The notes beneath the pieces were generated by a model that saw only the letters and a list, made by a program, of their open reading frames with translations, was not told the origin of the DNA and did not search any database. Below, piece by piece: positions 1,992 through 30,418 of a DNA stretch of 32,000 nucleotides (the first letter of the stretch is position 1; each line of letters opens with the position of its first letter). The stretch covers positions 3,720,001-3,752,000 of the forward strand of contig NC_003272.1 in assembly GCF_000009705.1 (NCBI RefSeq). Direction: 5' to 3'. This DNA comes from Nostoc sp. PCC 7120 = FACHB-418. Its GTDB lineage: Bacteria > Cyanobacteriota > Cyanobacteriia > Cyanobacteriales > Nostocaceae. The position numbers and the translations under genes are program-made.

Positions 1992-3263
1992 ATGTTAATT
2001 AAAAAGATAAAGCAACTATTATCAAGTCAATTTATCCGCAATGTAGGTTGGTTGGGAACAGCAGAGTTGGTAAATCGTATTTTTCGCTTAGGAACAACAG
2101 TAACTCTAGCACGAATGTTTAGTTCCCAGGATTATGGAGCAATGGCGCTCATCTACACAATTTTTGAATTTGCTAATGTCTTCACTCTCAGAGGTGGTAT
2201 CGGTGCCAAGATTATTCAAGCCAATGAGCAGGATCTCAAAATAATATGTAATACTTCATTTTGGCTAAATCTAATTCTAGGAATCTCAGTTTTTTTATGT
2301 CAGTGTATCGCGGCATTTCCCATTGCTCAATTTTATGGCAATCAACAACTAGTCTGGCCTATTTGTACTTTAGCCATTGTATATCTGATATACCCTATCT
2401 TCATGGTTAATTCTGCTCTTATCGAACGCGATAACCATCTGAAGATTACAGCTTTATGTAATGCTATTCAAGCATTTGTGGGTAATGTAATTACAGTGGT
2501 TTTTGCTCTTTTGGGTATGGGTATTTGGGCTATAGTTTTACCTATAGTTTTATCAACTCCAGTTTGGGTTGTTGTCACTTGGATGAATAACTCTTGGCGA
2601 CCTCCGACAAAATTTTCTCTCGATAAATGGCGAGAGGTTACCAGTTTTGGAAAAAATATGCTGGCTGTAGAATTTCTGAATAAAATCAGAAATAATTTAG
2701 ATTATTTAATAGTTGGTAAATTTCTAGGTACAGAACAATTAGGAATTTACTTTTTCGCTTTCAATGCTGGTTCGGGTATTAGTATTAATGTAATTAACAC
2801 ATTTATGTCTGCTTTATTTCCTTATATATGTGCAGTCAGAGAAAATTTAACAGAATTTAAACAAAGATATTTCAATAGTTTAAAGAAGATTTTATCATTT
2901 GTCATCCCAATTATTCTAGCTCAAGCTATTTTAGCCCCTATATATGTGCCGATAGTGTTTGGTGAAAAATGGACGACGGCTGTACCAATTTTGATTTTAA
3001 TTTGTTTATCAGTTATCCCTAGAGTATTTGGATGGGCTAATTCACTTTTACTCAATGCTGTAGATAAAACACATATTAACTTAAATATTAATCTTCTATT
3101 TACTATCTTTTTCGCTGCGGCAGTATTCTTAACAGTTCAGTGGGGAGTGTTTTGGGTAGCTGTAGGTGTTTTGTTATCTCATGTATTGTTCATACCTGTG
3201 TCTGTTTTATGGAGTTATAGGTATATTTTTCACAATCGCACTCGCACTTTGAGCAAGGTTTAG
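1992..3263 (+). CDS. Wzx-type polysaccharide flippase (MOP/PST superfamily)
   Basis: The ORF-track call is 1941..3263 with a TTG start. The first in-frame ATG is at 1992 (MLIKKIKQLL). The protein is hydrophobic throughout, with about 12 helices. The N-terminal NVGWL..LVNRIF..TTVTLARMFSSQDYG pattern is typical of O-antigen/EPS flippases. Confidence 0.8.
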   Translation: MLIKKIKQLLSSQFIRNVGWLGTAELVNRIFRLGTTVTLARMFSSQDYGAMALIYTIFEFANVFTLRGGIGAKIIQANEQDLKIICNTSFWLNLILGISVFLCQCIAAFPIAQFYGNQQLVWPICTLAIVYLIYPIFMVNSALIERDNHLKITALCNAIQAFVGNVITVVFALLGMGIWAIVLPIVLSTPVWVVVTWMNNSWRPPTKFSLDKWREVTSFGKNMLAVEFLNKIRNNLDYLIVGKFLGTEQLGIYFFAFNAGSGISINVINTFMSALFPYICAVRENLTEFKQRYFNSLKKILSFVIPIILAQAILAPIYVPIVFGEKWTTAVPILILICLSVIPRVFGWANSLLLNAVDKTHINLNINLLFTIFFAAAVFLTVQWGVFWVAVGVLLSHVLFIPVSVLWSYRYIFHNRTRTLSKV

Positions 3264-10710: not shown

Positions 10711-11979
10711 CTATCTGCCACGATCGCGTTCTAAATCATCAATCACTTTCTGCATATACCACTCTTCCGACATCCCCGGTTGGTAATCTTTTTGCTGCTG
10801 AATTAATCTTTGAGCAATTTCCCAATACCCGCCAACCAACCGCAGGAGTTTTTGACGCAACACATTCGACTTTTGTTGCTTATATTCAGGAACGGATGTC
10901 TGAATTTGTTTGAGGCTATCTTGGGTTAGTTGGTAATTTTCCCAGTCTTGTTGTTCACAAAAGATACTAGCTGCACGTTGATAGTCAGCAACGGCGTTTT
11001 GCATTTCTTCGAGGAAAGTGTGAGTTATGCCACGATTGTAGTGAGCTTGGGCATCATTGGGGTTAATTTGCAACGCTTTGCCATAGTCTTGAATAGCACC
11101 TAGATAATTACCCATTGCGCGATAGGTATTTCCTCTGGCAACATAACCTAAGGTGTCTTCTGGCTGCATTTGAATGGCTTGATGAAAATCAGCGATCGCA
11201 CCTTGATGATCACCTAATAGAGAACGTGCTTTACCTCGGTTACGATAGACGGCTGCATCCTGAAAGTTTAATTGTAATGCTTGGTTAAAATCAGCGATCG
11301 CTTCTCGATAGTTCCCCATTTTGCACCGCACCACTCCCCGACAGCAATAGGCTTGAGCATCTTGAGGATCGGTTTGTAATATCCAGTTTAAATCGGCTAT
11401 GGCTTCTCTGGTGTCGCCTTTTTCGGCTTTGTCTAATAGTTGGGTAAAATATTCGTTAACAGATTTTATGGGGGCAATGGTAGCTTTTATAGGCTGTATG
11501 GTAGCTTGTTTTGCTGGCTGTAACTGTTTAATTTTCTCTAGACACAGACGACAATTTTCTTGGTCTTTTTGCTGCAAGTATAATTCCGCAGCTTTTTTAA
11601 AACTAGCGATCGCATTTTGAATATATCCCTGTTTGCGCTGCACCGTCCCCCGTAAGCTATGAGCCGCAGCATAATTAATATTCAGTCGAATCGCCTGTTC
11701 TATATCTTCTAGCGCCCCCGGTAAATTTTTCAGCGCCAACCTTGCTAATGCGCGACAGTAATATGCTTCTACACTTTCAGGGTTTATCTTGATAACTTCA
11801 GTGTAATCTGACACAGCCAAAAGAATTGCCCCTGAGTCGTAATATGCTAAACCTCTTTGTAAATAAGCTTCAGCAAAATAAGGAGCAAGTTTTAAAGCAC
11901 GGCTAAACTCCTCAATGGCTCCAGCGTAGTCTTTTTGTTTAGCTTTTTCCAGTCCCTGGTTATAAAACTCGTTATTCAT
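10711..11979 (-). CDS. Tetratricopeptide (TPR) repeat protein
   Basis: It contains many 34-aa repeats of the A..Y..G.....A..D..KAL.L.P pattern in two blocks, followed by a non-TPR C-terminal tail of about 55 aa (…WYMQKVIDDLERDRGR). Confidence 0.85.
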   Translation of the reverse strand: MNNEFYNQGLEKAKQKDYAGAIEEFSRALKLAPYFAEAYLQRGLAYYDSGAILLAVSDYTEVIKINPESVEAYYCRALARLALKNLPGALEDIEQAIRLNINYAAAHSLRGTVQRKQGYIQNAIASFKKAAELYLQQKDQENCRLCLEKIKQLQPAKQATIQPIKATIAPIKSVNEYFTQLLDKAEKGDTREAIADLNWILQTDPQDAQAYCCRGVVRCKMGNYREAIADFNQALQLNFQDAAVYRNRGKARSLLGDHQGAIADFHQAIQMQPEDTLGYVARGNTYRAMGNYLGAIQDYGKALQINPNDAQAHYNRGITHTFLEEMQNAVADYQRAASIFCEQQDWENYQLTQDSLKQIQTSVPEYKQQKSNVLRQKLLRLVGGYWEIAQRLIQQQKDYQPGMSEEWYMQKVIDDLERDRGR

Positions 11980-18322: not shown

Positions 18323-19015
18323 ATGTTTTTTCACAAGAAAGAACCGATTCACGTTGTAAATATCGGTGAAGCAAACCCTCGTTTTGCTCAATTGCTTTTA
18401 GAGCAATTTGGTGGAGCGACAGGAGAACTATCAGCAGCTTTACAATACTGGGTGCAATCATTCCACGTTGAAAACGCGGGAATTAAAGATATGCTGCAAG
18501 ATATTGCCATCGAAGAATTTAGCCATTTAGAGATGGTTGGCAAACTCATCGAAGCGCATACGAAAAACGTGGATCAAACAGAGGCCTATAAAAGTACTCT
18601 CTTTGCTGTAAGGGGTATGGGGCCTCATTTTCTAGATAGTCAAGGTAATGCTTGGACAGCAAGTTACCTCAATGAAGGTGGAGATGTAGTTCGGGATTTG
18701 AGAGCGAACATTGCAGCTGAAGCGGGAGCGCGTCAAACCTACGAAGAGCTAATCAAACTATCACCAGATGAAGGAACGAAGCAAACTCTAGTTCATCTCC
18801 TCACACGAGAAATTTCTCATACCCAGATGTTTATGAAAGCTTTAGATTCACTGGGTAAATTAACAGATCCATTCTTCGGTAATGTCCAACCCGACGAAAC
18901 AGTGGCGCTCTACTATAACCTATCATCCAATGGGAACGGTCATGATGAACGTGGCCCTTGGAACTCTGAGCCAGCATTCAAATATGTTGCTAACCCACTA
19001 GAAAAACATTCCTAA
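18323..19015 (+). CDS. Manganese catalase
   Basis: LLLEQFGGATGELSAALQYW and the EEFSHLEMV ferritin-like di-metal motifs are present, and the length is 230 aa. The N-terminus MFFHKKE resembles the KatB-type Mn-catalase of Anabaena as I remember it. Confidence 0.9.
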   Translation: MFFHKKEPIHVVNIGEANPRFAQLLLEQFGGATGELSAALQYWVQSFHVENAGIKDMLQDIAIEEFSHLEMVGKLIEAHTKNVDQTEAYKSTLFAVRGMGPHFLDSQGNAWTASYLNEGGDVVRDLRANIAAEAGARQTYEELIKLSPDEGTKQTLVHLLTREISHTQMFMKALDSLGKLTDPFFGNVQPDETVALYYNLSSNGNGHDERGPWNSEPAFKYVANPLEKHS

Positions 19016-19968: not shown

Positions 19969-19982
19969 CAATTTGCCAATAA

Positions 19983-20054
19983 TTAAAAAGCATCTGGGAG
20001 TGTTGCCGTGTTTCCACCCCAGATGCTTTTTAGTTTCAACTTGCTCCTCACACA
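19983..20054 (-). ncRNA. yfr2: Yfr2-family sRNA, copy 1
   Basis: The minus strand reads GUGUGAGGAGCAAGUUGAAACUAAAAAGCAUCUGGGGUGGAAACACGGCAACACUCCCAGAUGCUUUUUAA. It has the 5' GUGAGGAG box, a GGAAACA loop and a terminator U-tract. An extended -10 (TGATATCCT) lies at 20060..20068. The ends are approximate. Confidence 0.75.
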
Positions 20055-20059
20055 ACTAG

Positions 20060-20068
20060 AGGATATCA
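20060..20068 (-). promoter_or_regulatory. Extended -10 element (TGaTATCCT) for Yfr2 copy 1
   Basis: A TGnTAnnnT element ends 6-8 nt upstream of the GUGUGAGGAG 5' box. The same arrangement is found at all four copies. Confidence 0.6.
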
Positions 20069-20142
20069 CTTGTTATTTTATTTAGCAAGTATATTGTATG
20101 ACACTTTGCCAACTGCACAGAAAACTCTCAGTGTAGCCTCAA

Positions 20143-20215
20143 TTAAAAAGCGCCTGGGAGTGTTGCCGTGTTTCCACCCCAGACGCTTTTTATTTTTAAC
20201 TTGCTCCTCACACAC
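20143..20215 (-). ncRNA. yfr2: Yfr2-family sRNA, copy 2
   Basis: The minus strand reads GUGUGUGAGGAGCAAGUUAAAAAUAAAAAGCGUCUGGGGUGGAAACACGGCAACACUCCCAGGCGCUUUUUAA. It is identical to copy 3 over about 80 nt. An extended -10 (TGTTATTGT) lies at 20222..20230. Confidence 0.75.
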
Positions 20216-20221
20216 AAATAA

Positions 20222-20230
20222 ACAATAACA
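20222..20230 (-). promoter_or_regulatory. Extended -10 element (TGtTATTGT) for Yfr2 copy 2
   Basis: It has the same TGnTAnnnT form and position as at the other copies. Confidence 0.55.
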
Positions 20231-20346
20231 CTGGCAATCATAAATAGTAAATCTATCCTGTGACAGTTTGCTATCTGCACAAAACAGGAGTATTTCGGCG
20301 GAATTTTAACATTCCTGTCCACTGGGACAACTGACACGCACAGCGC

Positions 20347-20421
20347 AATAAAAAAGCGCCTGGGAGTGTTGCCGTGTTTCCACCCCAGACGCTTTTTATT
20401 TTTAACTTGCTCCTCACACAC
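20347..20421 (-). ncRNA. yfr2: Yfr2-family sRNA, copy 3
   Basis: Its sequence is the same as copy 2. An extended -10 (TGATACTTT) lies at 20428..20436. Confidence 0.75.
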
Positions 20422-20427
20422 AAATAA

Positions 20428-20436
20428 AAAGTATCA
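20428..20436 (-). promoter_or_regulatory. Extended -10 element (TGaTACTTT) for Yfr2 copy 3
   Basis: It has the same TGnTAnnnT form and position as at the other copies. Confidence 0.55.
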
Positions 20437-20833
20437 CTTATTTTTTGAGAAGACAAGTATAATGCGTGACTCTTTATGAATTCTTTAAAGAAAATATCGG
20501 GATCGGTAATAACTGAGTAAAAATTCTTAACATAAATAGGCTACCTGTTGCCTGGTTAAGCTGATATTAACGCAACAGTATGTGAATCTAACAAAGCTAT
20601 AATTTTAAAGGCAACATTAACTAGACTGCCAAAAAAAGCTACCGAAGAGATGAAGTTGTATTTATGAACTTTGTAAAACACCAAGTTATAAAAGTTACCT
20701 ATTTTCCCCGTCCCTACTTCAAAATTGAAATTTCCGACTAATCAATCTGTAATATATATCCCAAGATTGTTGCCGCTTGCAAAAAAACACTTGATTTTTC
20801 ATAAAACCGTTACTGCCAAGGATTAATTGCAGT

Positions 20834-23800
20834 ATGTCAAATATCCAGCGCTCTCATTTGCAGCGTTACTGTATCTCTATTGTGTCGGTATTATTGGCGC
20901 TGTTGCTAGGCTTAACGCTGGGAAGATATTTAAAAGTAGAGATTTCACCACTGTTTTTTGCATCTGTAGTCTTTAGTAGTTGGTACGGCGGATTAGCACC
21001 AGGTTTAGTTGCTACAGTCTTGGCTATTTTAGTTAAGAATTACTTTTTTATTACACCATTCAACTCAATAGCAGTTAGCCAAGGTAATGATTTACTCAAT
21101 TTAATCGTGTTTGCTTCTGTAGCAGTATTAATTAGTTCATTAAATTTGCAAGTCCTTACGGCAAGGGAAGTGTCTGAGGCAAAATTGGGTAAGTTGAAGG
21201 TGAATTATCGCCAATTGTTAGAGACAGCCTATGAAGGTATTTGGATATTTGACAGTGAAGGAAAGACAGAATATGTCAGCCCTCAGCTAGCCCAAATACT
21301 TGGTTACAGTGTAGAACGAATAGGCGAATTCTCAATTTTTAATTTTCTAGAACCCCAGGCGCGTTTGGAAATTGAGCAATGGCTAGAGCAACAGCAAAAG
21401 TACAATCACCAAACTAAACAGCAGTTTGATTTACGTTTACAACGCCGCGATGGAGCCTCACTTTGGGTAATTGTTTCTCTCAGTTCCATACTGGATAAGC
21501 ATAGAAGATTTTCTGGTGCAGTTGCCATGCTAACTGATATTACAGAGCATAAGCACGAACAAGCAGAACCTGACCTCGAACGTCAACGCCTGCGCGCCAT
21601 CCTTGATATTCTACCAATGGGAGTAGTGATTTCTGACGCTAAAGGACAGCTTTTAGAAATTAATCCTGGCGTGAAAGCGATTTGGGGAGAAGATGCGCCA
21701 TTGCTCGATAATACTAGCCAATATCATCAATATAAAGGATGGTGGCCGGATACAGGTCAACCCCTGACAGCCGCAGAATGGACACTAGCTCGTACCCTAG
21801 CTACAGGTGAAGCGATAATTGGAGAAGAGATTGATATTGCAACATTTGATGGCAAGCGAAAAACCATCCTCAATTCTGCCGTCCCCATTTATGATGCCAC
21901 TGGAGCGATAGTTAATGCTGTAACTGTTAATGTAGATATTACTGAGCGTAAACGGGTAGAAGCCGCCTTAAGGCAGAGTGAAGCACTAGCCAAAGCACGG
22001 GCAGAAGAACTCGAAACGATCATGGAGACTGTGCCGGCTGCTGTCTGGATTGCCCATGATCCTCTTTGCCATTCCATGAGTGTCAATCGTGCTGCTTATG
22101 ACATGATGCGAGTACCACCAGGTTCTGTGATGACCGCAACCCCAGCTAGTGGAGGATATCCTTTTCCTTTTAAAATCCAAAAAAATGGTCAAGATATTCC
22201 TCTGAATGAGTTGGCAATGCAGCAAGCCGGACTGACTGGACAAGAAGTGGAAGCGGAAGTTGAATTTTTCTTCAGCCCGGAGGATGTACGACACATTTAC
22301 GGTAAGGCTATCCCCTTGTGCGATCCAGATGGTAATGTCCGAGGCGTGATTGGGGCGTTTTTGGATGTCACTGAACGCCAACAGTTGATGTCTTTGTTAC
22401 AACAAAAACAAGAATGGCTAGATTTAGCACAGAAGTCAGGAAAAATAGGCAGTTTTGACTGGAAATTAACTAGTAATATCAATGTTTGGTCACAAGAGTT
22501 AGAAGAAATTTATGGTTTGCAGCCTGGCGAGTTTGGCGGTACTTTTGCAGACTGGGCAAAACACGTTCATCCCGATGATTTAGCTAGGGTAGAAGTGGAA
22601 TTGCGGGAATTGTTGAACACAGGCTCAAAGGAATTTTTTAGTGATTTTCGCATCATTCGTCAGGATGGAAGTATTTGTTGGCTACAGTCGAGAGCCAGAG
22701 TTTTCTATGATGATCATGGTCAACCATTACGCATGGTAGGGGTAAATGTCGATGTGACTGAGCGCAAACAAGCAGAAGCAGCGCTACAGCAAAGTGAGGC
22801 TAGACTAAAACGATTATTGCAATCGAGTATTATTGGTATTATTGAGGCAGATCCAGAACGCATTAATTTTGCTAACGATGCCTTCTTGAAAATTGTCGGC
22901 TATACACATGAGGACTTGCTCACAGGAAAGTTGCGTTGGCAAGACATGACTCCACCAGAATACAGCGAACTGGATCAAGCCAAGGTGGAGGAAGTAATAA
23001 ACTCTGGGTTCTGCATTCCCTTTGAGAAAGAATATATCCGTAAAGACGGTTCTCGTGTTCCTATTTTATTAGGTGCTGCCCGATTGAGTTCCAGCCCGCT
23101 AACATGGGTTTGTTTTATTCTAGATTTAACCGAACGCAAACAAGCACAAGCAGCATTACAACAAAGTGAGTTGATGTTCCGCACATTAGCGGACACCATG
23201 CCGCAAATGTTTTGGATTACCCAGCCTAATGGCTACCACGAGTATTTCAATCAACGTTGGTATGATTATACAGGAACAACATTAGAACAAACCCAAGGCG
23301 CAGGGTGGCAAAATATTCTTCATCCTGATGATGTGCAACGCACTATAGAACAGTGGCAAGATAGCCTCGATACTGGCAAAGACTATGATATTGAGTATCG
23401 TTTGCGTCGTGCTGCTGATGGGGAATATCGTTGGCATTTAGGTAGAGCCTTTCCATTAAGAGATGAAAATGGTCGAATCTTGAAATGGTTTGGTTCCTGC
23501 ACAGATATTCACGACCAAAAGCTAGCAATTGAGGAACGCGCCCAGGCTTGGGAACAGGAACGTGCCGCCAGGATAGAGTTAGAACGAGCCAACCGGATGA
23601 AAGATGATTTCTTAGCAATAGTCTCTCACGAGTTGCGATCGCCTCTCAATCCCATTCTCGGTTGGGCAAAACTCCTCAAGAGTCGCAAACTGGATGCACT
23701 CAAGACTAATCAAGCCCTAGAAGTTATCGAACGCAATGCCAAATTACAAGCCCGGTTAATCGACGATTTACTAGATGTTTCCCGGATTTTACGCGGTAAG

Positions 23801-24706
23801 CTGAGTTTGAATGTCTGCACTGTTGACTTAGTAACCACCATCGAAGCCGCATTAGAAACAGTGCGTCTCACGGCTGAAAGTAAATCAATTCACATCCAAA
23901 CTGAGTTAACATCTCATGTGTGCAGAGTTGAAGGCGACCCCAACCGTTTACAGCAAGTGGTGTGGAATCTACTGACAAATGCCGTAAAATTCACACCGGA
24001 AGGCGGTCAAATAGAAGTCAGTCTAGAAAGAGTTGGTTCTTTAGCCCACATTCAAGTCAGGGATACAGGAAAAGGTATTAGTCTCGACTTTCTCCCCTAT
24101 GTGTTTGAACGCTTCCGCCAAGCCGACGAGGTAACAACCAGAAAATTCGGCGGACTAGGGTTAGGGTTAGCCATAGTCCGCCATCTTGTAGAACTCCACG
24201 GTGGTGCTGTCCAGGTAACAAGCCCAGGCGAAGGATTAGGGACAACATTTACAGTCAAACTACCCCTGATTGCTGTTTCTCAAATATATGAAGAGCATTT
24301 TGTGGCTGACACTACCCCAAATCTGCAAGGCTTGCGTATGGTAGTTGTAGATGATGATGCTGATACTTTAGAATTGCTCAGTTTTATTTTGGAACAGTAT
24401 GGAGTGGAAGTTAAGGCGGTAAATTCAGCAAATGAAGCATTGGAGGCGATCGCTCACACCAAACCAGATTTATTATTAAGTGATATTGGAATGCCAGAAG
24501 TTGACGGCTATATGCTGATTAAGCAAATCAGAAGTATGGAAGTAGCATCCGGCACAAAACTACCAGCGATCGCCCTCACCGCATTTGCTGGCGAAACCAA
24601 CTTTCAAAAGATTATGTCTGCTGGTTTCCAAAGGCATTTAACCAAACCCGTAGAGCCATCAGAATTGGCAACCGCCATAGCCAACCTAATTCAAAGTAAT
24701 TCGTAA
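20834..24706 (+). CDS. Hybrid sensor histidine kinase: DUF4118-like membrane module, six PAS/PAC units, HisKA, HATPase_c and receiver
   Basis: The N-terminus is hydrophobic and KdpD-like. Six PAS units each end in a ...D(I/V)TERK.AEAALQQSE-type linker. The H-box SHELRSPLN and the G-boxes DTGKGI and GGLGLGLAIV are present. The receiver has VVDDD...DIGMPEVDG...TKP. Confidence 0.92.
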   Translation: MSNIQRSHLQRYCISIVSVLLALLLGLTLGRYLKVEISPLFFASVVFSSWYGGLAPGLVATVLAILVKNYFFITPFNSIAVSQGNDLLNLIVFASVAVLISSLNLQVLTAREVSEAKLGKLKVNYRQLLETAYEGIWIFDSEGKTEYVSPQLAQILGYSVERIGEFSIFNFLEPQARLEIEQWLEQQQKYNHQTKQQFDLRLQRRDGASLWVIVSLSSILDKHRRFSGAVAMLTDITEHKHEQAEPDLERQRLRAILDILPMGVVISDAKGQLLEINPGVKAIWGEDAPLLDNTSQYHQYKGWWPDTGQPLTAAEWTLARTLATGEAIIGEEIDIATFDGKRKTILNSAVPIYDATGAIVNAVTVNVDITERKRVEAALRQSEALAKARAEELETIMETVPAAVWIAHDPLCHSMSVNRAAYDMMRVPPGSVMTATPASGGYPFPFKIQKNGQDIPLNELAMQQAGLTGQEVEAEVEFFFSPEDVRHIYGKAIPLCDPDGNVRGVIGAFLDVTERQQLMSLLQQKQEWLDLAQKSGKIGSFDWKLTSNINVWSQELEEIYGLQPGEFGGTFADWAKHVHPDDLARVEVELRELLNTGSKEFFSDFRIIRQDGSICWLQSRARVFYDDHGQPLRMVGVNVDVTERKQAEAALQQSEARLKRLLQSSIIGIIEADPERINFANDAFLKIVGYTHEDLLTGKLRWQDMTPPEYSELDQAKVEEVINSGFCIPFEKEYIRKDGSRVPILLGAARLSSSPLTWVCFILDLTERKQAQAALQQSELMFRTLADTMPQMFWITQPNGYHEYFNQRWYDYTGTTLEQTQGAGWQNILHPDDVQRTIEQWQDSLDTGKDYDIEYRLRRAADGEYRWHLGRAFPLRDENGRILKWFGSCTDIHDQKLAIEERAQAWEQERAARIELERANRMKDDFLAIVSHELRSPLNPILGWAKLLKSRKLDALKTNQALEVIERNAKLQARLIDDLLDVSRILRGKLSLNVCTVDLVTTIEAALETVRLTAESKSIHIQTELTSHVCRVEGDPNRLQQVVWNLLTNAVKFTPEGGQIEVSLERVGSLAHIQVRDTGKGISLDFLPYVFERFRQADEVTTRKFGGLGLGLAIVRHLVELHGGAVQVTSPGEGLGTTFTVKLPLIAVSQIYEEHFVADTTPNLQGLRMVVVDDDADTLELLSFILEQYGVEVKAVNSANEALEAIAHTKPDLLLSDIGMPEVDGYMLIKQIRSMEVASGTKLPAIALTAFAGETNFQKIMSAGFQRHLTKPVEPSELATAIANLIQSNS

Positions 24707-24748
24707 TTTCGCCAAGATAAAACCCGGACAATAAAAGGCTTTCAAGTC

Positions 24749-24778
24749 TGTCAACAGACAACAGACAACTGTCAACAG
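24749..24778. repeat. STRR heptamer tract (TGTCAAC/AGACAAC) x4
   Basis: The four units read directly are TGTCAAC AGACAAC AGACAAC TGTCAAC. Confidence 0.8.
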
Positions 24779-24783
24779 CCATA

Positions 24784-24855
24784 AATTAAAAAGCGCTCAG
24801 AAGTGTTACCGTGTTTCCACTCTAAGCGCTCTTAATTTCAACTTGCTCCTCACAC
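24784..24855 (-). ncRNA. yfr2: Yfr2-family sRNA, copy 4 (divergent stem, conserved loop and 5' box)
   Basis: The minus strand reads GUGUGAGGAGCAAGUUGAAAUUAAGAGCGCUUAGAGUGGAAACACGGUAACACUUCUGAGCGCUUUUUAAUU. An extended -10 (TGTTATCTT) lies at 24862..24870. Confidence 0.72.
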
Positions 24856-24861
24856 TATTAG

Positions 24862-24870
24862 AAGATAACA
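24862..24870 (-). promoter_or_regulatory. Extended -10 element (TGtTATCTT) for Yfr2 copy 4
   Basis: It has the same TGnTAnnnT form and position as at copies 1-3. Confidence 0.55.
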
Positions 24871-25059
24871 CCGCCTTGAAATCAAAACTAATGTTATCAG
24901 TGACACTTTCCTAACTGCACCATTGTGAGAAGTGAGCAAGTGCTAAATTTTCACCTTTTTAACGCTGAGTAACGCTAAGGTTAGCGCCAAGGCACGCAGA
25001 GGTTTTCTGATGAGCATTCGCTAGTTATCAAATAATCAAGCGCTCCTCTACACCCATCT

Positions 25060-26580
25060 TTAGTGTAAAAAGTGACGCACCCCAGTCAACACCATCAGCA
25101 AACCGAGTTCATTAGCAGCTTTGACAGAATCTTGATCCCGCAGGCTTCCCCCTGGTTGGACAATGGCGCTAATACCGGCGGCGGCGGCGGTTCTCACTGT
25201 ATCATCGAAGGGGAAAAATCCATCGCTGGCGAGGATTGCACCTTTAGCTTTGTCTCCAGCTTGTTCTAAGGCAATTTTCGTTGAACCAATGCGGTTCATT
25301 TGTCCTGCACCTACACCTAGAGTAGTGCGATCGCTTGTCACAACAATAGCATTAGATTTAACGTGTTTGCAGACTTTCCAAGCAAACAGCAATTCTGCTA
25401 ATTCATCGGGTGTAGGTTGGCGTTCTGTCACGACTTGCCATTGACTTGTGTCAGCAGCAATATCATCCGCAGCCTGCACCAGGAAACCCCCGGCGATTTG
25501 TTTGACTAAAGTTTTAGGGCCGGTACTCAAATCAGCCAAAGTCAACACCCGCACATTAGATTTCTTGGAGAGGATTTTTTGCGCTTCTGCATCACAATCA
25601 GGCGCAATCACACATTCTAAAAACGTCTTGGTTAACTCGCTGGCTGTCGCTGCATCAATAGGACGGTTCAGGGCGACAATCCCCCCAAATGCCGAAGTAG
25701 CATCAGCATTAAAAGCCTTTTGGTAAGCCTCCACAATGGTATCTGCCAACGCCGTACCGCAGGGATTAGTATGTTTAATAATCGTTGCGGCTGGTGTATC
25801 AGTGAACTCTGCAATAATGCGTCGGGCGGCTTCTAAGTCAACCAAGTTATTGTAACTCAGTTCCTTACCTTGCAGTTTCTCGGCTGCTGTCCACCCTGTT
25901 GGCGTAGTCCCCGTTTGATACCAAGCTGCTGGCTGATGGGGGTTCTCACCGTAACGCAGAGATTGTAATTCAGTACCGCTTAGGGTGTGCTGTTGTGTAC
26001 CTGAGAGGTAAGAGGCTATAGCGCTATCATAACTTGCTGTATGTAAAAACCCTTTCAAAGCCGCCTTTTGCCGAAATTCTAAGGAAGCCACTCCGTTATT
26101 TTGCCGTAATTCTTGCAAATACTCGTCATACTGCGCCGGATCACATAATACCGTCAGATGAGCAAAATTCTTCGATGATGCCCGCAACATCGCCGGGCCG
26201 CCAATGTCAATTTGTTCCACAGCTTCCGCCAACGTCACCCCTGGTTTAGCAATAGTAGACTCAAAGGGATAAAGATTCACCACCACCAAATCAATCGGGC
26301 GAATTTGGTTATTTTCCAAATCTGTCAAATCACTAGCTACATCCCGCCTAGCCAAAATCCCCCCATGAATCCGGGGATGTAGAGTTTTCACCCGTCCACC
26401 CAAAATCTCTGGCGAACCCGTGTAATCTGCAACCTTCGTCACAGGTAAACCAGCATCCTTGAGGGCTTGGGCTGTCCCCCCACTGCTGATTAAATCAAAC
26501 TCAAATTCCTCCACCAAGCGACGAGCTAAGTCAATTAAACCAGTCTTGTTAGATACACTCAGCAGTGCTAGACGCGCCAT
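25060..26580 (-). CDS. purH: Bifunctional AICAR transformylase / IMP cyclohydrolase
   Basis: The N-terminus ALLSVSNKTGL, the motifs GGRVKTLHP and YGENPHQ, and the C-terminus GVRHFLH are PurH hallmarks. Confidence 0.95.
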   Translation of the reverse strand: MARLALLSVSNKTGLIDLARRLVEEFEFDLISSGGTAQALKDAGLPVTKVADYTGSPEILGGRVKTLHPRIHGGILARRDVASDLTDLENNQIRPIDLVVVNLYPFESTIAKPGVTLAEAVEQIDIGGPAMLRASSKNFAHLTVLCDPAQYDEYLQELRQNNGVASLEFRQKAALKGFLHTASYDSAIASYLSGTQQHTLSGTELQSLRYGENPHQPAAWYQTGTTPTGWTAAEKLQGKELSYNNLVDLEAARRIIAEFTDTPAATIIKHTNPCGTALADTIVEAYQKAFNADATSAFGGIVALNRPIDAATASELTKTFLECVIAPDCDAEAQKILSKKSNVRVLTLADLSTGPKTLVKQIAGGFLVQAADDIAADTSQWQVVTERQPTPDELAELLFAWKVCKHVKSNAIVVTSDRTTLGVGAGQMNRIGSTKIALEQAGDKAKGAILASDGFFPFDDTVRTAAAAGISAIVQPGGSLRDQDSVKAANELGLLMVLTGVRHFLH

Positions 26581-27035
26581 GTCTCAATTCCTCAGATGCC
26601 AAAGACCCCAATTTTCACACAACCCTTGCTTCACTTCAAGGGCATCAGGAATAACATAATCAGCCATCATATTTTAGTGAGAATCATTAGAGATGACAAT
26701 TAATAACTTGCCATCATCAAGACGTAAACCAGCGATATGAATCAATTCAAAATTCAAAATAAGCTCAACAACCCCAGACCCAACTACGAGTAGATAAGGT
26801 CTGAGATTCACCCACCTTGAGATGAGCAAAAATGACTCTACCGGGAAGAGTTTTTTCTGTGTCACTGATTAAATCAGTTTGAGGAATCCTGATTCGGAAG
26901 GAAATACTGGGTTCAAGGACTAAATAAGTTAACCTTTGAAATTCATTCCCCTGCCCCTTACGCCTCTCCCTCCTGCTATATATTGAGAATGCAGAGAATC
27001 AACTCTACAACCCTACACTCAATATCAAGACCGCG

Positions 27036-28004
27036 ATGACCTATTTAGAAACAGCCGCACAATTTTATAGCGAAGTTGCCCAAACGCCGCAAGTGGGGCT
27101 GTGTTGTGTTCAAAGTACACCTCTACAACTACCAGGGCTGAAAATTCCTTTACCCATGCAGGAGATGAACTATGGTTGTGGAACCACTGTTCATCCTACG
27201 GAACTTGGCAAGCAACCTACCGTCTTGTATGTTGGTGTGGGTGGTGGGTTAGAAGCATTGCAATTTGCTTATTTTTCTCGTCGCCCTGGTGCTGTGATTG
27301 CAGTTGAACCAGTTGCCGCGATGCGAGAAGCAGCAGCACGCAACCTAGAAATGGCTTTAACAGACAACCCTTGGTTTGACAGCAGTTTTGTAGAGATTCG
27401 TGAAGGAGATGCCTTTAATTTACCTGTGGCTGATGGGTCAGTTGATATCGTCGCTCAAAATTGTTTGTTTAATATTTTCGAGCCTGAAGATTTGACCCGT
27501 GCGTTAAAGGAAGCGTATCGGGTGTTAAAGCCTGGTGGACGGTTGCAAATGAGTGACCCTATTGCCACCAGTCCCGTCCCTGCACATTTGCAACAAGATG
27601 AACGGTTGCGCGCTATGTGTTTGTCTGGCGCACTTACCTACGAAGAATACACCCAGCGTATCATTGATGCAGGCTTTGGTCAGATTGAAATTCGGGCGCG
27701 TCGTCCTTATCGCTTACTAGATTCCCAAACTTATAACTTAGAAACGCATTTACTTTTAGAAAGTCTCGATTCCGTCTCATTCAAAGTGCCTATGCCAGAA
27801 GATGGCGCTTGCATTTTTACTGGTAGAACTGCAATTTATGCCGGTTGTGACGCATTTTTTGATGACAAAGCCGGACATATCCTACAACGTGGCATTCCGG
27901 CAACCGTATGCGATAAAACTGCTGCTAAACTAGCAACTGTAAAGCCAAAAGAAGTAATAATTACTGATTCTACTTGGCATTATAACGGTGGTGGTTGCTG
28001 TTAA
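27036..28004 (+). CDS. arsM: ArsM-like SAM-dependent arsenite methyltransferase (arsenosugar-cluster type)
   Basis: The SAM motif I is VLYVGVGGG. Cysteines sit in ArsM-like contexts (LCCV, NYGCGT, AQNCLFN, AMCLSGA). There is a C-terminal GGGCC tail. The gene is adjacent to an ArsS-type radical SAM gene. Confidence 0.7.
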   Translation: MTYLETAAQFYSEVAQTPQVGLCCVQSTPLQLPGLKIPLPMQEMNYGCGTTVHPTELGKQPTVLYVGVGGGLEALQFAYFSRRPGAVIAVEPVAAMREAAARNLEMALTDNPWFDSSFVEIREGDAFNLPVADGSVDIVAQNCLFNIFEPEDLTRALKEAYRVLKPGGRLQMSDPIATSPVPAHLQQDERLRAMCLSGALTYEEYTQRIIDAGFGQIEIRARRPYRLLDSQTYNLETHLLLESLDSVSFKVPMPEDGACIFTGRTAIYAGCDAFFDDKAGHILQRGIPATVCDKTAAKLATVKPKEVIITDSTWHYNGGGCC

Positions 28005-28019
28005 TTTATACTCCTGAAA

Positions 28020-28979
28020 ATGTTGTTAATTAGTCTATTTATTGCTACCCTGTTCCTGGCTTATGCTAATGGAGCTAATGACAATTTTAAGGGTGTAGCT
28101 ACGCTGTTTGGTAGTCGGACAACAAGCTACCAATCAGCAATTTTGTGGGCAACTTTTACGACTTTTGCAGGTTCTTTGACTGCTACTTATTTAGGTAGGA
28201 CAATAGTTAAAGAGTTTACTGGTAAGGGTATTCTCCCAGATGCGATCGCCAATGCACCAGAGTTTCATTTAGCCGTGGCGATCGCATCTGGCTTGACGGT
28301 AGTACTGGCTACCACGACAGGATTTCCCATTTCCACATCCCACAGTTTAATCGGTGCAATGTTTGGTGCTGGGCTAGTAGCTTTTGGACTCCAGGTAAAT
28401 TTTGCCATTTTAGGAATCTATTTCATTTTTCCCTTATTATTAAGTCCTATTATTGCTATTGCCTTAAGTGCAGGAATTTACAGTTTAATTAATTACTTAA
28501 ATATTAAGCTGAATTGGCAGTTAAATCAAAAAATAATTGATACTATTCATTATATCAGTGCTGGTACATTTAGCTTCGCTAGAGGATTTAATGATACTAC
28601 TAAAATTGTCTCCCTAGTCCTAATTATCGATTATTTCTCACTTTCTGGAGCAATGATTACTATCGCAATGGCTATGGGTCTCGGTGGTTTACTCAACTCT
28701 CAAAAAATTGCTGAAACCATGAGTAACAAAATTACCTCCATGAATCGTATCCAGGGGGTATCTGCTAATATCATTACTAGTATTCTAGTGATTCTTGCTA
28801 GTAATTTTGGGTTGCCTATATCTACAACTCATGTCGCAGTATCTTCTATTTTTGGTGTAGGATTAATTGGTAGTAAAGCCAATAAATATATTTTTTATCA
28901 AATTTTATTAGTCTGGTTCATCAACTTGCCTATTGCCACAATTATTGGCGGAATCACTTATAGATTATTACAAGGTTAG
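28020..28979 (+). CDS. PiT/PHO4-family inorganic anion (phosphate-type) permease
   Basis: Two PHO4-type half-repeat signatures are present (YANGANDNFKGVATLFG and FARGFNDTTKIVSL). The protein is hydrophobic throughout and 319 aa long. Confidence 0.8.
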   Translation: MLLISLFIATLFLAYANGANDNFKGVATLFGSRTTSYQSAILWATFTTFAGSLTATYLGRTIVKEFTGKGILPDAIANAPEFHLAVAIASGLTVVLATTTGFPISTSHSLIGAMFGAGLVAFGLQVNFAILGIYFIFPLLLSPIIAIALSAGIYSLINYLNIKLNWQLNQKIIDTIHYISAGTFSFARGFNDTTKIVSLVLIIDYFSLSGAMITIAMAMGLGGLLNSQKIAETMSNKITSMNRIQGVSANIITSILVILASNFGLPISTTHVAVSSIFGVGLIGSKANKYIFYQILLVWFINLPIATIIGGITYRLLQG

Positions 28980-29021
28980 CAACACTCCCATATCTTAACT
29001 TATATTCAGGAATAGTCATCA

Positions 29022-30029
29022 ATGACAACTACACCAAGCCCTACCATAAATACAAAAATAACTCCTTTTAACTCTAAGTTAAATTCTCCTTTAATCAAAC
29101 AAGAAATCAATGTTTTACAAATTAATTTAGGTAAACGCTGTAATCTTGCTTGTACACACTGTCATGTTGAAGCTAGCCCAAAACGCACAGAAGAGTTAAC
29201 AGCAGAAATCTGCCAACAGTTAATCGAGGTAATTCACCGATTCCCGCAAATTCAAATTGTCGATTTAACTGGCGGCGCACCAGAAATGAACTATGGATTT
29301 AAGCCATTAGTAGCAGCCGCACGCCAAAATAATAAACAGGTAATTGTCCGTTCCAATTTAACTATTTATTTTGTGGAGGGGTTTAACGATTTACCTGAAT
29401 ATTTTGCTGCCAACAAAATCAGAATTGTAGCATCCATGCCTTGCTACCTAGCAGATAATGTCGATAAAATGCGTGGTACAGGTGTATTTGATGATTCCAT
29501 TAAAGCTTTACAATGGCTAAATCAAGTTGGCTATGGCAGAGACCCCAGTTTAATTTTAGATTTGGTTTATAATCCCCAACTACCTACAAGTGAAAAATTT
29601 GCCCTAACCCCTGAGCAAAGTAAATTGGAGCAAGACTATAAAACCTTCTTACAAGAACATTTCCATATTAAATTTAACAACCTGTTCACGATTACTAACC
29701 TACCAGTTGGCAGAACCAAACTCTATTTAGAACGGAAAAAACTAGAAACCAGTTATTTGCAGTTTTTAGAATTGCATTTCAACCCGCATACAGTAGGAAA
29801 TTTAATGTGTCGCAATCAATTATCTATAGACTATTTAGGTAATATATATGATTGTGATTTTAATCAGATGATGAATTTACCAGCGAAAACTCTGAATGGC
29901 GAAACTCTGACTGTTGCTAAATTAATCGAGGCTAGTAGTTTGGATCTGATTAATGAAATTCAAACTGCAAACTATTGCTATGGTTGTACTGCTGGTTGTG
30001 GTTCTAGTTGCAGTGGTGCTTTGGTATGA
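29022..30029 (+). CDS. arsS: Radical SAM / Cys-rich-domain protein, ArsS type (arsenosugar biosynthesis)
   Basis: The CxxxCxxC motif is CNLACTHC. The C-terminal Cys-rich tail CYGCTAGCGSSCSG matches my memory of the radical-SAM/Cys-rich (seleno)protein family found beside ArsM-like methyltransferases. This is the all-Cys form, with no in-frame TGA. Confidence 0.75.
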   Translation: MTTTPSPTINTKITPFNSKLNSPLIKQEINVLQINLGKRCNLACTHCHVEASPKRTEELTAEICQQLIEVIHRFPQIQIVDLTGGAPEMNYGFKPLVAAARQNNKQVIVRSNLTIYFVEGFNDLPEYFAANKIRIVASMPCYLADNVDKMRGTGVFDDSIKALQWLNQVGYGRDPSLILDLVYNPQLPTSEKFALTPEQSKLEQDYKTFLQEHFHIKFNNLFTITNLPVGRTKLYLERKKLETSYLQFLELHFNPHTVGNLMCRNQLSIDYLGNIYDCDFNQMMNLPAKTLNGETLTVAKLIEASSLDLINEIQTANYCYGCTAGCGSSCSGALV

Positions 30030-30126
30030 CAGGGAACACTCAGTTGCAAATAATTGTTCTATGTCAGCAAAGGTTAATTTTATTACAAACAGTGTTATTT
30101 TGCATTGAGAATAGCTGAGATGCGTT

Positions 30127-30132
30127 TATGAT
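30127..30132 (+). promoter_or_regulatory. -10 box TATGAT (with TTGAGA at 30105..30110, 16-nt spacer) for Yfr1-like copy A
   Basis: The hexamer lies 21 nt upstream of the CUCCUCACAC motif, the same distance as at copy B. Confidence 0.6.
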
Positions 30133-30138
30133 GTATTT

Positions 30139-30208
30139 AGTTTAAATCTCCTCACACCACATTAAAAAAACCGTAGATTACTCAATGTTTCTACGGTTTT
30201 TATTTTTT
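30139..30208 (+). ncRNA. yfr1: Yfr1-like sRNA, copy A
   Basis: The plus strand has ...UUUAAAU-CUCCUCACACCAC-AUU followed by the terminator AAAAAACCGUAGA(12-nt loop)UCUACGGUUUUUAUUUUUU. The motif is at 30148..30157. The 5' end is inferred from the -10 box. The canonical Yfr1 5' stem-loop is at best a weak AUUUA/UAAAU hairpin. Confidence 0.65.
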
Positions 30209-30345
30209 GATTAGAGATAAAAATATTACTCTTTAGCAAATATTTAATCCAAAGTACAACCTATCTAAGCGCCAATTATTAATTTTTTCCCAAAAAATCC
30301 TGTTACCAAAATTGTTACAAGTGTATCACTGCCGGGCAGTTGCCC

Positions 30346-30351
30346 TATGAT
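30346..30351 (+). promoter_or_regulatory. -10 box TATGAT for Yfr1-like copy B
   Basis: The hexamer lies 21 nt upstream of the CUCCUCACAC motif. The palindrome ACTGCCgGGCAGT at 30328..30340 sits in the -35 region. Confidence 0.55.
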
Positions 30352-30357
30352 GATCTA

Positions 30358-30418
30358 TTAGTTAAGCTCCTCACACCACACAAAAAGCCGCGAAACAACT
30401 AGTTTCGTGGTTTTTTTA
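30358..30418 (+). ncRNA. yfr1: Yfr1-like sRNA, copy B
   Basis: The plus strand has ...GUUAAG-CUCCUCACACCAC-ACAAAAAG followed by the terminator CCGCGAAAC(aacua)GUUUCGUGGUUUUUUU. The motif is at 30367..30376. The terminator sequence is unrelated to that of copy A, but the single-stranded box is identical. Confidence 0.65.

Follow-up and report, generated by a model that had tools for sequence, protein, structure and literature searches.

Four Yfr2 genes and a tandem pair of Yfr1-motif small RNAs in Nostoc sp. PCC 7120: a published sponge mechanism and a probable chance linkage

Introduction

Do six small RNA (sRNA) genes with perfectly complementary seeds, clustered within 10.5 kb of a cyanobacterial genome, form a dedicated sRNA/anti-sRNA locus, or do they stand side by side by chance? 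The question is raised by a 32-kb stretch of DNA from Nostoc sp. PCC 7120 (contig NC_003272.1, positions 3,720,001 to 3,752,000; hereafter the window), in which an original prediction made from the sequence had proposed such a locus of four Yfr2 and two 'Yfr1-like' genes. The answer that we regard as likely is that four Yfr2 genes, in an array split by a histidine kinase gene, and a tandem pair of Yfr10-like sRNAs (copies A and B) take part in a sponge mechanism that is already published, and that the linkage of the two blocks is due to chance.

The mechanism has been worked out step by step in other studies. A motif common to Yfr1, Yfr10, Yfr12, and Yfr18 allows these RNAs to pair with the 5' ends of Yfr2-5 (Steglich et al. 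2008, PMC2518516). In Prochlorococcus MED4, both Yfr1 and Yfr10 were recovered in a pull-down with Yfr2 (Lambrecht et al. 2019, PMC6778093). Yfr2 also relieved the repression of a porin 5' untranslated region (5'UTR) by Yfr1 in an E. coli reporter system, while RNase E cleavage of Yfr2 was blocked by bound Yfr1 or Yfr10 (PMC6778093). The original prediction had referred correctly to the complementarity and interaction of Yfr1 and Yfr2 in Prochlorococcus (PMC2518516, PMC6778093). In Nostoc PCC 7120, binding of Yfr1 to Yfr2 was demonstrated by electrophoretic mobility shift assay (EMSA) and led to a trap model with 'the four repeats' of Yfr2, and Yfr1 represses several cell-wall mRNAs (Brenes-Alvarez et al. 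2020, PMC6974561). Known Yfr1 targets include mraY (all4316) and murC (alr5065). Later cross-linking and immunoprecipitation data place both Yfr1 and Yfr2 within the PatR targetome (PMC11797042). The published mutant seed Yfr1_UG reads CUCCUCUGACC.

Results

Six sRNA genes carry the complementary boxes

Over the 32 kb of the window, the box GTGTGAGGAG has seven exact matches; each is on the minus strand, and dinucleotide-preserving shuffles predict 0.02 matches. Four of the seven (20044, 20204, 20410, and 24846) are located at the 5' ends of full-length hits to Rfam family RF01701. Two further sites (30148-30157 and 30367-30376) read as CTCCTCACAC on the plus strand, where the sRNA genes encode RNAs of about 60 nt with CUCCUCACAC. 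Motif count and Rfam thus bear out the four Yfr2 and two Yfr1-seed genes of the original prediction, and its exact 10-nt complementarity between the boxes of the two families and its cluster coordinates (19983-30418) stand as well. Between the two families, which occupy opposite strands, there are 5-10 kb of DNA and five unrelated genes. The proteins of the window are 100% identical to proteins of assembly GCA_014696765.1. The six genes and the promoter elements next to them are:

19985..20053, minus strand: Yfr2 copy 1, the published transcription start site (TSS) 3740053r; Rfam Cyano-1 hit 19982-20057, 59.1 bits
20098..20119, minus strand: upstream promoter box of Yfr2 copy 1, TGTGCAGTTGGCAAAGTGTCAT, about -66 to -45
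20145..20213, minus strand: Yfr2 copy 2; Rfam Cyano-1 hit 20142-20217, 57.9 bits, and alignment with the other copies
20350..20419, minus strand: Yfr2 copy 3; Rfam Cyano-1 hit 20348-20423, 57.4 bits; upstream box degenerate (AAAGAGTCAC)
24788..24855, minus strand: Yfr2 copy 4, directly downstream of purH; Rfam Cyano-1 hit 24787-24859, 49.4 bits
30127-30132, plus strand: TATGAT, -10 box of copy A, in the promoter-like hit TTGAGA-16-TATGAT
30139..30201, plus strand: copy A, the published TSS 3750139f; leader of 9 nt, followed by CUCCUCACACCACA, a run of A, and the terminator; 67 bits with R1, a covariance model for Yfr1-seed sRNAs that copy A itself helped to build
30346-30351, plus strand: TATGAT, -10 box of copy B
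30358..30417, plus strand: copy B, second in the tandem pair ('type 2', downstream); terminator 30382-30416; 74 bits with R1, which was likewise built with copy B among its sequences

The remaining match lies in a protein-coding gene:

18797-18806, plus strand: seventh CTCCTCACAC, within the coding sequence of the manganese catalase (Mn-catalase) open reading frame (HLLTRE), two genes from the Yfr2 array

As this site is coding and its DNA sequence is not conserved in the Mn-catalase orthologues of L010, L020, and L023, three of the purH loci described below, it is probably a chance match outside the sRNA system. A role as Yfr2 target, for which its complementarity to the Yfr2 5' end would qualify it in principle, was rejected on the same grounds.

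The minus-strand genes are the published Yfr2 set

All four minus-strand genes exceed the gathering score of RF01701 (the Cyano-1/Yfr2 family, 41 bits), cover model positions 1-69 of 69, and differ from the family in nothing. Each begins with a single-stranded GUGUGAGGAG box at the 5' terminus, followed by a terminator hairpin with a GGAAACA..AACAC loop. In the predicted fold of the copy 1 RNA, GUGUGAGGAG stands at the 5' start and the terminator hairpin at the end carries the loop GGAAACACGGCAACAC. Table S3 of Brenes-Alvarez et al. 2016 lists Yfr2 of Nostoc PCC 7120 at 3740053-3739990 on the reverse strand (PMC4734099). With the window's offset of 3,720,000, TSS 3740053r falls on position 20053, the first G of the copy 1 GUGUGAGGAG, and the listed end falls on position 19990, the last base of the copy 1 terminator stem. 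Primers 905/906, with which Yfr2 was transcribed in vitro for the published EMSA (PMC6974561, Table S4), also match window copy 1 exactly. Read counts of 291/965/2240/938 (counts of Mitschke et al.) are given for TSS 3740053r, and the table has no separate entries for copies 2-4 (PMC4734099 Table S3). The four genes are the organism's full published Yfr2 (Cyano-1) set.

An alignment of 68 distinct Yfr2 copies yields an upstream-box consensus TGTGCAGTT-N3-AAAGTGTCAC, about 45-66 nt upstream of the TSS. Boxes like that of copy 1 also precede copies 2 and 4, and the copy 3 version is degenerate. In its position, the box resembles the CGRE1/PlmA-type site of picocyanobacterial yfr2 (PMC6191309), to which it may also be related in sequence. 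A 92-aa open reading frame at 20143-20421 on the minus strand spans copies 2 and 3 and is annotated as a gene in L002 and L005, two strain-level relatives of the window; it is almost certainly a spurious protein call on top of the sRNA genes.

Copies A and B share the Yfr1 seed but are not Yfr1

In both plus-strand genes a TATGAT -10 box lies 15 nt upstream of the seed; downstream of the seed come CACA, a stretch rich in A, and a hairpin with a U-run. The folding energy of the terminator hairpin is -15.6 kcal/mol for copy A (z-score -6.0) and -18.6 kcal/mol for copy B (z-score -4.7). Copy A is documented as a transcript. An unnamed sRNA of 57 nt is listed at 3750139-3750196 on the forward strand (PMC4734099, Table S3); with the offset of 3,720,000, its TSS corresponds to position 30139, an A seven nt past the copy A TATGAT, and its listed end to position 30196, the last base of the copy A terminator stem. 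Its reads number 19/133/15/83 (Mitschke et al. counts, PMC4734099 Table S3), such that copy A increases about 5-7-fold after nitrogen step-down, from 19 to 133 reads in the wild type and from 15 to 83 in hetR (PMC4734099). Taken together with the counts for Yfr2, the expression that the original prediction had required of both families is documented for one member of each, 3740053r and 3750139f (PMC4734099). By analogy with copy A, the TSS of copy B would be at about 30357-30360.

Yfr1 in the sense of Voss et al. 2007 is defined by the undecanucleotide ACUCCUCACAC, two stem-loops around an unpaired region of 16-20 nt, and guaB-yfr1-trxA synteny (Anabaena 7120); its 5' hairpin has 6-10 bp and is accompanied by a terminator, and each genome has one copy. 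Brenes-Alvarez et al. 2016 lengthened the invariant motif to CACUCCUCACACC and placed Yfr1 at TSS 56433f (PMC4734099). At the motif, copy A reads AUCUCCUCACACC and copy B AGCUCCUCACACC, the common part being the 11-nt CUCCUCACACC, and the leading A of the 11-mer ACUCCUCACAC is missing in both. According to their predicted folds, both RNAs form the terminator only and leave a leader of about 9 nt unpaired. Their genes are found downstream of arsS, not between guaB and trxA. The canonical Yfr1 5' end has no match anywhere in the window with up to three mismatches allowed. For comparison, published oligos (422, 470, 471, and 904) were assembled, on the assumption that they overlap by 3 nt, into a reconstruction of canonical Nostoc Yfr1; its predicted fold has a 5' hairpin, followed by the unpaired seed and the terminator, as expected of Yfr1.

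Because these three defining features fail, sequence and predicted structure identify copies A and B as paralog-like 'Yfr1-motif' (Yfr10-like) RNAs and not as Yfr1. The label 'Yfr1-like' was hence right for the seed and wrong for the identity of the genes, which have neither the 5' hairpin nor the A of ACUCCUCACAC and do not lie between guaB and trxA. They have what characterizes Yfr10-like RNAs, a Yfr1 box in an unpaired region combined with a structure and synteny unlike those of Yfr1. Lambrecht et al. 2019 indeed list TSS 3750139f (copy A) as 'Yfr10 homolog', name it together with TSS 2515196r as the Nostoc Yfr1-motif sRNAs besides Yfr1, and describe this family as poorly conserved beyond the motif (PMC6778093). 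Canonical Yfr1 (TSS 56433f; PMC4734099 Table S3) and the Yfr1-motif sRNA 2515196r (PMC6778093) lie elsewhere in the genome of PCC 7120. The 4:2 gene dosage that the original prediction had read from the locus is therefore not a dosage of Yfr2 to Yfr1, as the plus-strand genes are not Yfr1 and further Yfr1-motif genes exist elsewhere.

No Rfam family was assigned to copies A and B at E <= 10 in the region 17-32 kb, in a library for which the presence of a Yfr1 model is unconfirmed, and none was assigned to the Yfr1-seed pair at the gathering threshold in the pair-holding loci. Hits to STnc40 and leader-peptide families in a permissive scan were at chance level only and were discarded.

Copies A and B are predicted to pair with Yfr2

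The interacting segments are predicted to be accessible: the unpaired probability is 0.76 in the Yfr2-1 box, reaches 0.96-0.99 in the seeds of copies A and B, and spans 0.96-1.00 over all C-rich boxes. Cofolding with Yfr2-1 yields a gain of -20.5 kcal/mol for copy A, whose leader AGUUU additionally pairs with AAACU of Yfr2-1, and of -22.4 kcal/mol for copy B, which forms 11 contiguous pairs. Reconstructed Yfr1, whose interaction with Yfr2 has been shown experimentally, gains -18.6 kcal/mol. In the duplex prediction that the original prediction had suggested as a check, copies A and B thus gain more than the validated partner. Overall, cofold gains range from -18.7 to -22.4 kcal/mol, compared to averages of -10 to -16 for seed-shuffled controls. 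It is plausible from these models that copies A and B bind Yfr2.

The Yfr2 array has a conserved home downstream of purH

Two genes frame or divide the Yfr2 array:

20834..24706, plus strand: PAS-rich hybrid histidine kinase of 1290 aa (Pfam), separating Yfr2 copy 4 from copies 1-3
25060..26580, minus strand: purH, AICAR transformylase/IMP cyclohydrolase (Pfam, synteny scan), the anchor upstream of the Yfr2 array

We scanned 80 loci of other cyanobacterial species, each comprising purH and 10 kb on either side. About 30 of the 80, all from heterocystous cyanobacteria, carry Yfr2 directly behind purH, as one to three genes that share its strand and lie no more than about 1 kb downstream; none was found downstream of purH among about 45 non-heterocystous loci. 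The positive loci (L007-L035, L037, L053, L065, L077, and L113), in which Yfr2 lies roughly 90-700 bp downstream of purH, represent Nostoc, Anabaena, Dolichospermum, Aphanizomenon, Mojavia, Spirirestis, Fischerella, Calothrix, Rivularia, Rhizonema, and Iphinoe. For L010, L023, and L113, a scan with Rfam confirmed the assignment as Yfr2. In L010 (Nostoc sp. CMAA1605), L020 (Anabaena CCY 9613), and L023 (Mojavia pulchra), the gene order is purH, Yfr2 array, DUF3891, Mn-catalase, and the histidine kinase is absent. Because these loci have the array without the kinase, it looks as if the 3.9-kb kinase gene was inserted into an ancestral tandem Yfr2 array in the PCC 7120 lineage and thereby produced the split into one and three copies. 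Reviews describe yfr2 genes as residing at unconserved loci; the fixed home of the array downstream of purH in Nostocales may not have been noted before.

Copies A and B represent tandem sRNAs downstream of arsM-arsS

The plus-strand pair follows an arsenic-related gene group, and each copy is preceded by a repeat:

27036..30029, plus strand: arsM, a PHO4/Pit-like transporter, and arsS (arsenosugar biosynthesis); NCBIfam ArsM 578 bits, ArsS 419 bits
30081..30098, plus strand: degenerate repeat TATTAC-N6-TGTTAT, upstream of copy A
30301..30318, plus strand: perfect direct repeat TGTTAC-N6-TGTTAC, upstream of copy B, about 27-28 nt before TATGAT

A metagenome scan with the pattern TATGAT-N14-16-CTCCTCACACCACA retrieved 27 Yfr1-seed loci, and in 17 of them the sRNA gene or genes are directly downstream of arsM-(pit)-arsS orthologues (tblastn synteny). 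The family collected in this way comprises 34 distinct copies, with tandem pairs of position-specific types in at least 12 loci. The family seed CUCCUCACAC was preset by the search pattern, so that its invariance is no evidence of conservation; the leader AGUUAAG was not preset, yet it is conserved. In the family terminator, 96.7% of cells are paired and compensatory changes occur at 5 of 8 pairs, values that 0 of 500 shuffles reach.

In the upstream tandem type, the seed is preceded by AGUUAAGU, and the hairpin, CCGUGGA..UCCACGG, has a long loop; in the downstream type, of which many loci have orthologues, UAGUUAAG precedes the seed and the hairpin is formed by GCCGUGAAAC..GUUUCACGG. The existence of two position-specific types suggests that the duplication is old and that both copies have been maintained. 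Copy A is diverged in its leader, with AGUUUAAAU in place of AGUUAAGU.

An alignment of 33 promoters revealed nearly invariant GTTAC..GTTAC columns about 28 nt upstream of TATGAT. This TGTTAC-N6-TGTTAC box of the Yfr1-seed genes differs from the TGTGCAGTT-N3-AAAGTGTCAC box of the Yfr2 genes. Known cyanobacterial regulators have other spacings, namely GTA-N8-TAC for NtcA, a 10-bp period for the RpaB HLR1, and an 11-bp period for the cyanobacterial Pho box. By eye, the 12-bp period of TGTTAC-N6-TGTTAC fits none of these three spacings, and all three were set aside as candidates.

Further CTCCTCACAC elements with other 3' extensions were encountered in L092 (5313, plus strand), L102 (189, minus strand), and L109 (2498, minus strand). 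The L092 element continues as ...CACACAAUUAAG plus terminator and is located 300 bp upstream of a typical family member. These elements suggest additional, diverged Yfr1-seed sRNA types.

The proximity of the two families is not conserved

No exact Yfr1-seed motif of an sRNA was found within 10 kb in the 80 purH loci of other species, and the covariance model R1 detected no Yfr1-seed sRNA at E <= 1 in 1.44 Mb of these loci. Conversely, 26 of the 27 Yfr1-seed loci are without Yfr2. The sole locus that also holds purH and Yfr2 is L113, where two Yfr2 genes (2392-2644, minus strand) downstream of purH are 9 kb away from a Yfr1-seed sRNA (11678-11740, plus strand). Its gene context (P-type ATPase, chlM, DUF423, AurF-like) is unrelated to that of the window, and this metagenomic contig represents a second, independent case of loose linkage. 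The six-gene layout is retained in the strain-level relatives L001-L006.

Since the clustering is absent from the loci of other species, which the original prediction itself had named as a sign of chance, the linkage appears close to chance linkage, that is, a lineage-specific abutment of two independently conserved synteny blocks, whose proximity would not be functional. The proposal of a co-located sRNA/anti-sRNA locus is not upheld by these counts.

Discussion

For this organism, the literature already describes the sponge mechanism with its anti-Shine-Dalgarno (anti-SD)-like logic as well as the set of four Yfr2 copies. As has been shown for Yfr1, the C-rich, anti-SD-like seed represses translation by pairing with mRNAs at purine-rich sites in the 5'UTR or around the start. 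The 5'-terminal GUGUGAGGAG of Yfr2 in turn pairs with this seed and sequesters it, so that the repression is relieved, which has been shown for Yfr1 in Nostoc (by EMSA) and for Yfr1 and Yfr10 in Prochlorococcus. Copies A and B, each with its own putative promoter, a short and presumably unstructured 5' end with the Yfr1 seed CUCCUCACACCACA, and a terminator, may also be bound by Yfr2 and would then be a separately regulated input into the same network. The idea of the original prediction that one partner occludes ribosome-binding sites while the other titrates it describes this mechanism correctly, with CUCCUCACAC RNAs as the occluding and GUGUGAGGAG RNAs as the titrating side, but it is not new (PMC6778093, PMC6974561).

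The closest known system is the Yfr1-Yfr2 trap of Nostoc PCC 7120 itself, which has the same four Yfr2 genes, window copy 1 being the RNA used in EMSA, the same pairing of CUCCUCACAC with GUGUGAGGAG, and the same sponge model (PMC6974561). Its partner, however, is canonical Yfr1 (56433f, guaB-trxA), which is encoded outside the window, whereas the partners within the window are shorter and have no 5' hairpin. Yfr10, Yfr12, and Yfr18 of MED4 are likewise extra Yfr1-motif sRNAs that are unlike Yfr1 in structure, bound by Yfr2 in MED4, and linked to Yfr2 genes (PMC2518516, PMC6778093). The partners in MED4 are directly adjacent and one pair is co-transcribed, whereas in the window the linkage across the intervening genes is not conserved in other Nostocales. 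Pairing in MED4 requires a bulge and a mismatch, whereas 10-11 perfect base pairs are predicted here. Beyond cyanobacteria, in the enterobacterial sponge systems SroC/GcvB and AgvB/GcvB, a regulatory RNA likewise has its seed titrated by a second RNA. These systems are unrelated in sequence and mostly Hfq-dependent, whereas the partners in the window are multi-copy, stand-alone genes.

Could the cluster nevertheless be a functional sRNA/anti-sRNA module, in which proximity was selected for co-regulation, co-inheritance, or local co-transcriptional pairing? We consider this very unlikely. The adjacency of Yfr10, Yfr12, and Yfr18 to Yfr2, Yfr4, and Yfr5 in MED4, including a Yfr10-Yfr2 precursor (PMC2518516), would fit such a module, as would the L113 locus with its two Yfr2 genes and distant Yfr1-seed sRNA in an unrelated context and the retention of the layout in L001-L006. 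These points are countered by the lack of a Yfr1-seed sRNA in all 80 other-species purH loci, even though about 30 of them carry the Yfr2 array, by the 26 Yfr1-seed loci that lack Yfr2, by the different promoter boxes of the two families, and by the 5-10 kb, opposite orientation, and five unrelated genes that separate them. A different question is what copies A and B do. They might mainly be trans-acting repressors that reach mRNA targets of their own by means of the anti-SD-like 5' seed, with titration by Yfr2 being marginal, or decoys that keep Yfr2 occupied and thereby spare Yfr1. This would agree with a seed identical to that of Yfr1, a repressor of cell-wall mRNAs in Nostoc (PMC6974561), and with the parallel increase of 3750139f (19 to 133) and Yfr2 (291 to 965) upon nitrogen step-down, which is odd for a sponge and its victim. 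It is rather unlikely, however, given that the predicted duplexes of A and B with Yfr2 are at least as stable as the validated Yfr1-Yfr2 duplex and that Prochlorococcus Yfr10 was pulled down by Yfr2 and protects Yfr2 from RNase E (PMC6778093). One of the two copies might also be a decaying duplicate without function, which we find improbable: in copy A the promoter box is indeed degenerate and the leader diverged (AGUUUAAAU vs AGUUAAGU), but the TSS of copy A is documented, the box of copy B is perfect, and both types are kept in at least 12 tandem loci with a covarying terminator, a conserved -10 box, and the (preset) invariant seed.

The reading that we favor, a split Yfr2 array and a tandem Yfr10-like pair joined by chance and acting by the published sponge mechanism, has several observations against it. 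That copies A and B pair with Yfr2 is a prediction, and the seed-shuffled controls, which are still C-rich, at times reach similar energies, down to -22.6 kcal/mol. Copy B has no entry among the TSS-supported sRNAs published in Table S3 of PMC4734099, which would also fit a decaying duplicate. Finally, linkage of Yfr1-motif and Yfr2 genes recurs, in the three adjacent pairs of MED4 (PMC2518516) and in L113, and we assign a small probability to an advantage of proximity.

What is modestly new is the conserved tandem Yfr1-seed pair with its TGTTAC-N6-TGTTAC promoter box. It is tempting to propose, although we do so only tentatively, that copies A and B belong to a distinct and undescribed family of tandem 5'-seed sRNAs that is widespread in heterocystous cyanobacteria, resides downstream of arsM-arsS, and is transcribed from promoters with TGTTAC-N6-TGTTAC at about -58 to -41, a box that is presumably bound by an activator.

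In this locus, a real regulatory principle, the sponging of another sRNA's anti-SD-like seed by an sRNA, was rediscovered, and as such it opens no new question. The linkage of Yfr2 with Yfr1-seed genes, striking as it is in MED4, is no general rule. For the sRNA 3750139f, the conserved tandem partner and the conserved promoter box point to a regulator. If the proposed family is real, the Yfr1/Yfr2 network would gain a second, separately controlled supply of the 'Yfr1 seed'.

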